Shown: piece by piece, positions 26,606-27,010 of the stretch
Position numbering within the stretch: position 1 is the stretch's first letter
Layout: each line of letters begins with the position of its first letter
NCBI GenBank assembly: GCA_021839245.1
Contig: JAKCBQ010000001.1
Span: 41,032 to 105,031, forward strand
Source: Pseudomonadota bacterium
Lineage (GTDB): Bacteria; Pseudomonadota; Gammaproteobacteria; JAKAQQ01
Length of the DNA stretch: 64,000 nucleotides
Direction of reading: 5' to 3'
Program-made: the position numbers and the translations under genes
Notes under the pieces: model-generated
What the model was told of the DNA's origin: nothing
What the model saw: the letters and a program-made list of their open reading frames with translations, nothing else
Database searches by the model: none

Positions 26606-26680
26606 AGATGACGTTCGCGACTACGTCTCACCGGACTAGGGATACCGGTGATCCTTATGTGAGAAAAAATCGATTGCGTT
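26606..26680. repeat. ~75-bp repeat element, copy A (AGATGACGTTCGCGACTACGTCTCACC...GAGAAAAAATCGATTGC)
   Basis: About 85% identical to copy B at 28737..28808. Contains the short palindrome GACGT...ACGTC. It lies in a convergent intergenic region. Confidence 0.6.
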
Positions 26681-27010
26681 TCTCCGCGAGCGTCTCTCCA
26701 ATGCGATAGGTGCCGGCTCTGTGCCAGGCCATACGGATGAAGAGAGGACCATGGTGACCGAAATCCGCAGACCATCAAGCCCTGCGATTGTGTCATCAGT
26801 TCTCTCAAGCCCTTTTTCAGCGCCTTGAAATCCAGTTTCTTGAACGCCTTGGAGTATTTGAATTCAGGATCCAAAGGATTGGATCGCACCGAGTGTTGAT
26901 GCGGGATGCGAAGGTTCAGTTCATTGGGTCAGCAATCTCAGATTGTCCTTGCCTGATTCAGGGCTCCATGGTTGAACAGCAACACTGTTCACATGGGTGA
27001 TGCTCGCCAA
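26655..27010 (-). pseudogene. katG: catalase-peroxidase (KatG) N-terminal remnant with frameshift and multiple in-frame stops
   Basis: Minus-strand translation gives ...T-I-*-D-C-*-PNELNLRIPHQHSVRSNPLDPEFKYSKAFKKLDFKALKKGLRELMTQSQ. After a frameshift it continues [25 protein letters not shown], matching the KatG N-terminal heme-pocket region. Canonical Trp positions read TGA or TGC. The remnant ends at a TAA inside the ~75-bp repeat. Confidence 0.7.

Follow-up and report, generated by a model that had tools for sequence, protein, structure and literature searches.

Why does a stretch of minus-strand DNA in the middle of a lipoprotein gene cluster read as the beginning of a catalase-peroxidase (KatG), broken by stops? 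It could be what decay has left of a katG gene that stood at this place, a fragment brought in already truncated, a piece of DNA still in use, or an artefact of assembly. The window referred to below is the whole 64-kb stretch of DNA that was analysed, and the features discussed are listed in Table 1. Very probably, as we argue here, the stretch is the non-functional relic of a gene for catalase-peroxidase, a peroxide-detoxifying enzyme; the gene was once intact at this position, convergent with a TPR protein gene and divergent from a lipoprotein gene with PPPGG repeats. The remnant is, in other words, an ordinary unitary pseudogene, a familiar kind of feature of which the locus provides a new example.

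Table 1. Features of the katG locus, in window coordinates (minus-strand codons, insertions and motifs are given from high to low position; a dot stands where no strand applies).
Feature	Position	Strand	Remarks
TPR protein gene	21825-23138	+	Left synteny anchor; katG of the L074 lineage converges 215 nt downstream
p318	24120-25076		Tandem-duplicated as p327
p327	25549-26532	+	Tandem duplicate of p318; 3′ flank leads into repeat A
72-nt direct repeat, copy A	26606-26677	.	Adjoins the remnant at its truncation; also in L002
2.2-kb stretch (repeat A, katG remnant, p277, p170, repeat B)	26612-28815	.	Absent from MAG TL1-5.bin26 (L011)
katG pseudogene remnant	26680-26994	-	ATG (26994-26992) and about the first 105 codons; stitched alignment, NCBIfam NF011635/TIGR00198, PDB KatG
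Extra GA (+2 frameshift)	26696-26695	-	Between Y-R-I-G and D-A-R-G-E; common to L002
F-I-R-M-A-W-H	26741-26721	-	Distal heme-pocket Arg/Trp/His motif of KatG; sole catalytic element surviving
Extra T (+1 frameshift), then TGA	26778, then 26777-26775	-	TGA at the first Trp of WWPAD
TGA	26931-26929	-	Second Trp of R-D-W-W; L002 keeps TGG
TGC	26934-26932	-	First Trp of RDWW
TGA	26940-26938	-	Arg of R-D-W-W; L002 keeps CGA
TGA	26991-26989	-	Codon 2; common to the diverged L002 lineage
Divergent spacer, katG start to p277 start	26995-27124	.	Presumed former katG promoter region
p277	27125-27958	+	PPPPPGGG-repeat lipoprotein gene in divergent orientation to the katG remnant; 3′ tail degraded
p170	28142-28654	+	Paralog of the p277/p186 N-terminal domain
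72-nt direct repeat, copy B	28737-28808	.	Starts 30 nt past the His_Phos stop codon
Histidine phosphatase (His_Phos_1) gene	28839-29432	-	Right synteny anchor; fetched L001-L013

KatG identity of the remnant

The remnant reads in three minus-strand frames (26994-26779, 26777-26697 and 26694-~26680). Stitched together, these give M, a stop, TVLLFNHGALNQARTI, a stop, D-C, a stop and PNELNLRIPHQHSVRSNPLDPEFKYSKAFKKLDFKALKKGLRELMTQSQG in the first frame, followed by 26 residues in the second and D-A-R-G-E in the third. Two pieces are recognised by the NCBIfam catalase/peroxidase profile NF011635 without any editing: 50 residues (window:26779-26928(-)) match its positions 23-71 (E=5e-13), and the 26 residues of the other frame (window:26697-26774(-)) match positions 74-98 (E=1.4e-11). 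Adjacent stretches of one profile matched in two frames are direct evidence for a frameshift. The same unedited 50 residues returned 634 proteins at E<=1e-3 in a full HMMER search of 1.84 billion representatives (best E=2.7e-11), the best identity being 65%, and no close relative was found there.

When three of the stops are replaced by R, W and W, the repaired peptide matches profile positions 13-100 of 725 in NF011635 (E=8e-37) and residues 10-101 of the Burkholderia pseudomallei KatG structure (PDB 5SXX, E=5e-31). Its scores of 126.8 and 122.5 bits stay under the two curated whole-protein cut-offs for the KatG family, 981 bits (NF011635) and 770 bits. Against the intact, syntenic KatG of locus L074, introduced below, the stitched stump aligns gap-free over residues 9-105, with 53 of 97 positions identical (55%). 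The reading of this element as a decayed N-terminal katG remnant, put forward in an earlier note on this DNA, is thus borne out by the profile match, the PDB match and the gap-free alignment, and the minus strand does encode the peptides quoted there.

Nothing beyond this N-terminal part was recovered. A tblastn search of the 64-kb window with full-length KatG found only residues ~9-105, and a permissive tblastn for further KatG relics in the remaining window spacers and in the spacers of L011, L078, L081 and L082 gave noise (best E=0.17); KatG residues 107-727 were found neither in the window nor in ten loci of its lineage. A Pfam scan of the remnant returned no PF00141 match, since the stump stops before most of that domain. 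Word-indexed protein searches with the repaired peptide produced only short KatG fragments, at <=70% identity. The contigs of two such fragments belong to unrelated organisms, and are therefore uninformative on the origin of the remnant.

Set beside the KatG family (TIGR00198 / NF011635), the ~105 N-terminal residues of the stump are collinear, with mutated RDWWPN and WWPAD motifs and an intact FIRMAWH, whereas the stump as a whole amounts to ~15% of the family length, carries four stops and two frameshifts and reaches 127 bits against a cut-off of 981. To judge from its sequence, the remnant derives from the KatG family but is a non-functional member of it.

Lesions in the stump and what they leave

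The R-D-W-W positions had been described as reading stop-D-C-stop, and the first Trp of WWPAD as replaced by a further TGA, and both statements are confirmed by coordinate. The inventory of stops and one frameshift given with them was correct as far as it went and incomplete: a fourth TGA stands at codon 2, and the extra GA makes a second frameshift. Past this GA, where KatG reads YRIGDGRGG, the window gives D-A-R-G-E and the diverged locus L002 gives D-A-R-G-G. By alignment the gene fragment comprises ~105-106 codons, fewer than the ~120 first estimated. An uninterrupted frame of ~700-750 codons with two peroxidase-like domains is absent, the remnant ending at ~codon 106.

The one catalytic element to survive is F-I-R-M-A-W-H, which we take, from established knowledge of KatG, to be the motif of the distal heme pocket. 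In KatG the His that serves as proximal heme ligand, and the Tyr and Met that are cross-linked in the Met-Tyr-Trp adduct, all lie past residue ~200. This region is missing from the remnant, and so is the whole C-terminal domain. Deprived of these parts, the stump cannot be an enzyme, and it is predicted to encode none.

Parts of the remnant region also fall within two open reading frames, at 26545-26889 (114 aa) and 26921-27112 (63 aa). They should not be called genes when this locus is annotated.

An intact katG at the equivalent position in relatives

Identity of the TPR protein to that of the window orders the available loci: 98.6% in L002, ~95.5% in L011 and L081, 75-79% in L072, L074 and L078, and, more distantly, 70% in L082 and 45% in L079. 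The lineage at 76%, represented by eight independent JGI/Logan assemblies (L074-L077 and L087-L090), has a convergent katG after the TPR block, which consists of T2SS-C, ClpS, ClpA, PPPase, DUF1249, Tsp, LipA and TPR, with katG 215 nt later. Full-length copies (727-730 aa) occur in L074, L075 and L090, from JGI metagenomes 3300054988, 3300050385 and 3300050360; in the remaining five the gene runs off the end of the contig. The 727-aa KatG of L074 scores 1257.5 bits against the NF011635 cut-off of 981, and 1152.3 bits with the other profile.

On the opposite strand, 173 nt upstream of the katG start codon, starts a lipoprotein gene whose product shows GGFQETFGWP, PPPGG repeats and a C-terminal CPGGRVLCP, and which belongs to the same family as p186, p277 and p170 of the window. 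Past the stop codon of p277, another frame of the window reads PGGRVSYP followed by a stop, comparable to the end of the L074 lipoprotein. Position and this PGGRVSYP tail together hint that p277 may be the counterpart of the L074 gene. With such a counterpart standing beside an intact katG, p277 seems to be a long-standing neighbour and not to have been acquired.

The L074 lineage therefore resembles the window in its Tsp, LipA and TPR neighbourhood, in the orientation of katG and in the divergent PPPGG-repeat lipoprotein gene; it differs in that katG directly follows TPR, whereas p186, p318 and p327 stand between TPR and the remnant in the window. An intact katG at the same spot and in the same orientation, next to the same kind of divergent lipoprotein gene, identifies the stump as an in-situ relic. 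The proposal that catalase-peroxidase was lost at this locus is supported by that intact gene in a related lineage, and the alignment with intact-katG relatives, which the earlier note had suggested, has now been done: the window lost residues ~107 to 727.

Orthology here rests on position and not on sequence affinity, since the stump is no nearer to the L074 KatG (the 55% given above, ~51% over the 50 variable residues at the N-terminus) than to KatGs that are unrelated, which reach up to 65-70%. Alignments of the window spacers with the L074 spacers at the DNA level scored not above shuffled sequence.

Gene order in other relatives is seen only in part. Loci L078, L081 and L082 have a p186-like gene after TPR, joined in L078 and L081 by a p318-like gene, and their contigs end there. 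No relative's contig extends past the lipoprotein gene, so that the ancestral order they give is incomplete. Contigs were also seen to break in the PPPGG repeat. The 47%-identity TPR homolog loci L079/L080 have a different neighbourhood and no katG, and are thus unhelpful for polarising events. A scan of JGI metagenomes with p327 gave one weak 1.5-kb locus, and no homologs of p170 were found outside its own 90% cluster.

A scan of species representatives with the phosphatase found the MAG Proteobacteria bacterium TL1-5.bin26 (L011; 87% aa, ~89% nt), with Acidithiobacillus spp. next at 68% and 61%. These best matches suggest that the host is probably an uncultured relative of Acidithiobacillus.

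The same stump in other assemblies and in a second lineage

Taking the phosphatase gene (28839-29432) as an exact-match anchor, we obtained ten loci, all from the ENA metagenome assemblies of a single study. Four of these (L001, L003, L004 and L007) match the window at 100% over 581 nt around the remnant. In a fifth locus, L002, identity to the window reaches 99.6% right of ~27650 and only 93% left of it, so that L002 must be either an assembly chimera or a recombinant. We took its left part (L002-left) as a second lineage, ~5% different in the neighbouring genes.

This second lineage has the stump too, ending likewise beside the 72-nt repeat and showing the same extra T with its TGA and the same extra GA. 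The string GGCTTGATGG at the first of these frameshifts is the same in both, marking it as an old, common lesion. Where the window has stop-D-C-stop, L002 reads R-D-R-W; as L002 keeps CGA at the Arg codon, the TGA found there in the window is a private C-to-T change. Both private nonsense changes of the window (CGA to TGA and TGG to TGA) are G:C to A:T transitions. L002-left, for its part, has 4-nt, 1-nt and 2-nt indels of its own within the stump. Truncation and both frameshifts, being common to the two lineages, are older than their split, after which each lineage appears to have decayed further.

Between the window and L002-left the katG remnant is 82.2% identical, with 5 gap openings in 317 nt. 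The longer intergenic spacers (TPR-p186, p318-p327 and katG-p277) are 85.9-86.7% identical, and Tsp, LipA, TPR, p186, p318, p327 and the p277 N-terminus 94.4-96.3%. The stump thus appears to evolve like unconstrained non-coding DNA. Two promoter-like minus-strand hexamer pairs, which are consensus matches only, were seen near its start, one in the katG-p277 spacer (27131-27102) and one just upstream (27170-27143).

The 72-nt repeat and the 2.2-kb stretch

The remnant had been thought to end inside a ~75-bp repeat. The association holds to within a few bases, but similarity to KatG stops at ~26680, at the edge of copy A and not inside it, and the repeat measures 72 nt. Its two copies are identical at 62 of 72 positions, and their similarity ends sharply at 72 nt on both sides. 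Both stand immediately 3′ of genes on the minus strand, copy A of the katG stump and copy B of His_Phos. Continuing KatG into the repeat, by reading the repeat start (Q-S-I-F) as the KatG sequence Q-Q-R-F, was considered and rejected as too weak.

What kind of element this repeat might be was addressed by several scans. There are two copies only in the window and none in the fetched loci of other lineages; 23000-29000 contains 0 pairs of inverted repeats; and the precomputed Pfam matches of the called genes include no transposase or integrase family. Rfam gave no match in 23000-29600, and none at the 72-nt repeats, except chance miRNA matches in the PPPGG repeat. Folding gave no signal on either strand (z-scores -0.15 to -0.55), and promoter and terminator scans of the repeat found nothing.

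The 2.2-kb stretch bounded by the two copies is missing from L011, where the 3′ flank of a p318-type paralog joins the 3′ end of His_Phos directly and both repeat copies are gone, a state seen in a single MAG scaffold with a 100-N gap nearby. Recombination between the copies would leave one behind, and L011 has none, which points to either a larger deletion or an empty insertion site.

The remnant sits in the midst of the lipoprotein paralog cluster, and not at its border with the cluster merely following, as had been assumed. A proposed link between katG disruption and the acquisition or expansion of this cluster finds circumstantial backing: p186, p318 and p327 occupy the place that the katG 3′ end takes in the L074 lineage, whereas p277 looks old. 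A causal link between katG loss and expansion of the lipoprotein cluster is a plausible conjecture. A further-reaching idea is that the repeats are the ends of a present-or-absent 2.2-kb unit, the footprint of an undescribed recombination that shuffles and expands secreted Tyr/Gly/Pro-rich lipoprotein genes and caught katG as collateral, perhaps with the stump and spacer kept as a formerly peroxide-responsive promoter that now drives p277; we regard this as unlikely.

Alternative explanations

Decay in place has to be weighed against the arrival of a katG fragment already truncated, within a repeat-bounded 2.2-kb unit inserted between the p318-type array and His_Phos. Such an insertion would agree with L011, which at ~89% nt misses exactly 26612-28815, with the junction at the outer repeat edges and no copy left, and also with the restriction of p170 homologs to their own cluster and with the lack of any special affinity of the remnant to the syntenic L074 KatG. 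That absence in L011 could mean insertion in the window lineage is one observation that sits uneasily with in-situ decay; another is that p186, p318 and p327 intervene in the window, unlike in L074. Yet it would take a large coincidence for a katG-lipoprotein pair to reach the same TPR neighbourhood independently, p277 and p170 have a local paralog in p186, and the marks of a mobile unit were not seen, there being no transposase or integrase family among the Pfam matches of the called genes, no inverted repeats and no extra copies of the repeat in the window or in the fetched loci of other lineages. It is the synteny of the intact katG in relatives that makes us hold the insertion to be improbable.

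Still less probable is a stump in use, be it as a short protein, as a recoded gene (TGA as Trp or Sec) or as regulatory DNA or an RNA that was kept, such as a once peroxide-responsive promoter now serving p277 alone. Two of the four TGA codons do fall at Trp positions, the kept part is exactly the 5′ end and upstream spacer, the promoter-proximal spacer is better conserved than the remnant between the window and L002, and the 114-aa and 63-aa frames overlap the region. However, one TGA stands at an Arg and one at codon 2, two frameshifts come on top, and TGA is an ordinary stop in the window, ending for instance the neighbouring His_Phos gene; reading TGA as Trp is ruled out by these facts. 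The remnant is moreover the most diverged segment of the locus, with 5 indels, the 63-aa frame differs heavily and ends elsewhere in L002, and the Rfam scan of 23000-29600 yielded only the chance miRNA matches in the PPPGG repeat. By established knowledge of KatG, 105 residues without the proximal heme ligand cannot be a catalase-peroxidase. As for stops and frameshifts being sequencing or assembly errors in an intact gene, the source is indeed a short-read metagenome assembly, and neighbouring repeats disturb assemblies, as the contig breaks in the PPPGG repeat and the apparently chimeric L002 illustrate. But the 581 nt identical in four other assemblies and the frameshifts and truncation common to a diverged lineage tell against a sequencing artefact, and the missing KatG residues 107-727 turned up neither in the window nor in the ten loci of its lineage, leaving this explanation a negligible probability.

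Proposed history of the locus

Under decay in place, the simplest history would start from the order TPR, p186, p318-type gene(s), katG on the opposite strand and a p277-type gene, and the L074 lineage would have lost, or never had, p186 and p318. In the ancestor of the window and L002-left lineages, katG would then have lost everything after ~codon 106, the break falling next to a 72-nt sequence that recurs 2.1 kb away. The same ancestor would have gained the +1 frameshift with its TGA at WWPAD, the +2 frameshift and the TGA at codon 2. Later neutral drift of the stump would have added the changes private to the window (CGA to TGA, TGG to TGA and TGG to TGC), and L011 (TL1-5.bin26) would then have lost the rest, that is, the stump plus the two downstream lipoprotein genes. 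We infer the nature of the truncation as a deletion, the order of these events and the L011 state as a secondary deletion from the comparison of the loci.

The locus thereby offers a locus-level, dated view of catalase-peroxidase loss in a small clade of uncultured Acidithiobacillus relatives: one species with an intact katG, two lineages with a decaying stump and one lineage without even the stump. Such a relic could aid the reconstruction of how peroxide defence evolved in acidophiles.

Comparison with known systems

Loss of katG by decay has a known parallel in Mycobacterium leprae, whose katG is described as a pseudogene in a passage of PMC8252540 citing Eiglmeier et al. 1997. There, as in the window, the gene is pseudogenised in one lineage while relatives keep it. 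The two cases differ in setting and extent: M. leprae belongs to another phylum and ecology and has undergone genome-wide reductive evolution, with about 1,310 pseudogenes reported (PMC7498718), whereas in the window most of katG has been physically removed. Closer to the putative host, Acidithiobacillus ferrooxidans is documented as being without catalase in a passage of PMC2621215, and the stump fits this pattern of catalase absence in the Acidithiobacillus group. In A. ferrooxidans the catalase gene is absent with no relic described, whereas the window still holds, at the locus itself, a relic stump of the gene that was lost.

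A lineage-restricted family and the repeat tract of p277

The genes p186, p277 and p170 (named, like the other window genes here, by protein length in amino acids) form a lineage-restricted family: all three have in common a domain rich in Tyr and Gly, YGWY...GGFQETFGWP...YPY. A lipoprotein signal is present in p186 and p277, a plain signal peptide in p170; a search of 5.8 billion proteins returned no homologs of p170 beyond its own 90% cluster.

Coordinates of features in and around the katG-stump/lipoprotein locus
Feature	Window position	Strand	Description
p186	23409-23969		
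p318	24120-25076	plus	array copy
p327	25549-26532	plus	array copy
Region with long antisense ORFs	23230-26550	minus	over p318/p327 genes
Antisense ORF, 320 aa	23901-24863	minus	example
Antisense ORF, 160 aa	25837-26319	minus	example
Open frame, 114 aa	26545-26889	minus	overlaps katG stump region
Open frame, 63 aa	26921-27112	minus	overlaps katG stump and upstream spacer region
p277	27125-27958		
Tandem repeat, 24-nt unit	27407-27920		inside p277; encodes PPPPPGGG, ~15-20 copies
p277 3' end	27940-28064		
p170	28142-28654		
Hydrogenase-like cluster	29704-37060	minus	

The PPPPPGGG repeat is the break point of several contigs, and p277, 277 aa long in the window, was called at 207-266 aa in other assemblies. 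Given these differing lengths and the contigs that end in the repeat, its copy number either truly varies or has been collapsed by assemblers. Rfam mir-671 matches within the tract are attributed to chance. Inside the same repeat, at approximately window position 27650-27680, lies the identity switch of a metagenomic locus (L002; ENA ERZ27237177 k141_313837). Its identity to the window is 99.6% in the part with hyf, His_Phos and p170 but drops to 93% in the part with TPR, p186, p318 and the katG stump; the contig is either a two-strain chimeric assembly or a recombinant.

The 3' end of p277 appears degraded. Past its stop codon the same frame runs on with PSPLPQRVPSPLPLPRMPRS, and a different frame downstream terminates in PGGRVSYP*; combined, they look like GLRLPAPRPIGPPPNMPQPCPGGRVLCP*, the C-terminus of the lipoprotein that adjoins the intact katG of a relative (L074), with both Cys of that C-terminus replaced by Tyr in the window.

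The p318/p327 array and overlapping frames

The genes p318 and p327 are tandem duplicates, spaced with a period of ~1450 nt (~91% nucleotide and ~90% amino-acid identity); another locus of the window lineage (L003) has three copies of 335, 327 and 318 aa, and in the closest genome (L011, MAG TL1-5.bin26) a scaffold gap falls inside the array. The encoded proteins are secreted and rich in Trp/Tyr/Arg/Pro, match no Pfam family; a scan of JGI metagenomes gave just a single, weak homolog. Gene callers pick the plus-strand genes here rather than the long minus-strand ORFs, which are probably by-products of biased composition. Both small frames over the katG stump (the truncated catalase-peroxidase pseudogene) are likely spurious; gene calls in three assemblies include the 63-aa one, and its counterpart in L002 is heavily different in sequence and has another end point.

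Flanking regions

The spacing from the TPR anchor gene to the p186-type gene is ~270-290 nt in the window and in a relative with a 70% identical TPR (L082), versus 1 kb without a called gene in a 75%-TPR lineage (L078, 11315-12325), a gap in which permissive tblastn detected no KatG relic.

Directly right of the katG-stump/lipoprotein locus, and kept in L011, is a cluster that looks like a formate hydrogenlyase or a membrane-bound [NiFe] hydrogenase of group 4. It encodes Proton_antipo_M subunits, an NADHdh-like subunit, a large subunit of the Complex1_30kDa/49kDa-NiFeSe type and a small subunit of the Fer4/Oxidored_q6 type. A distant version of this cluster adjoins the His_Phos gene, the right anchor of the locus, in Acidithiobacillus sp. 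IBUN Pt1247-S3.
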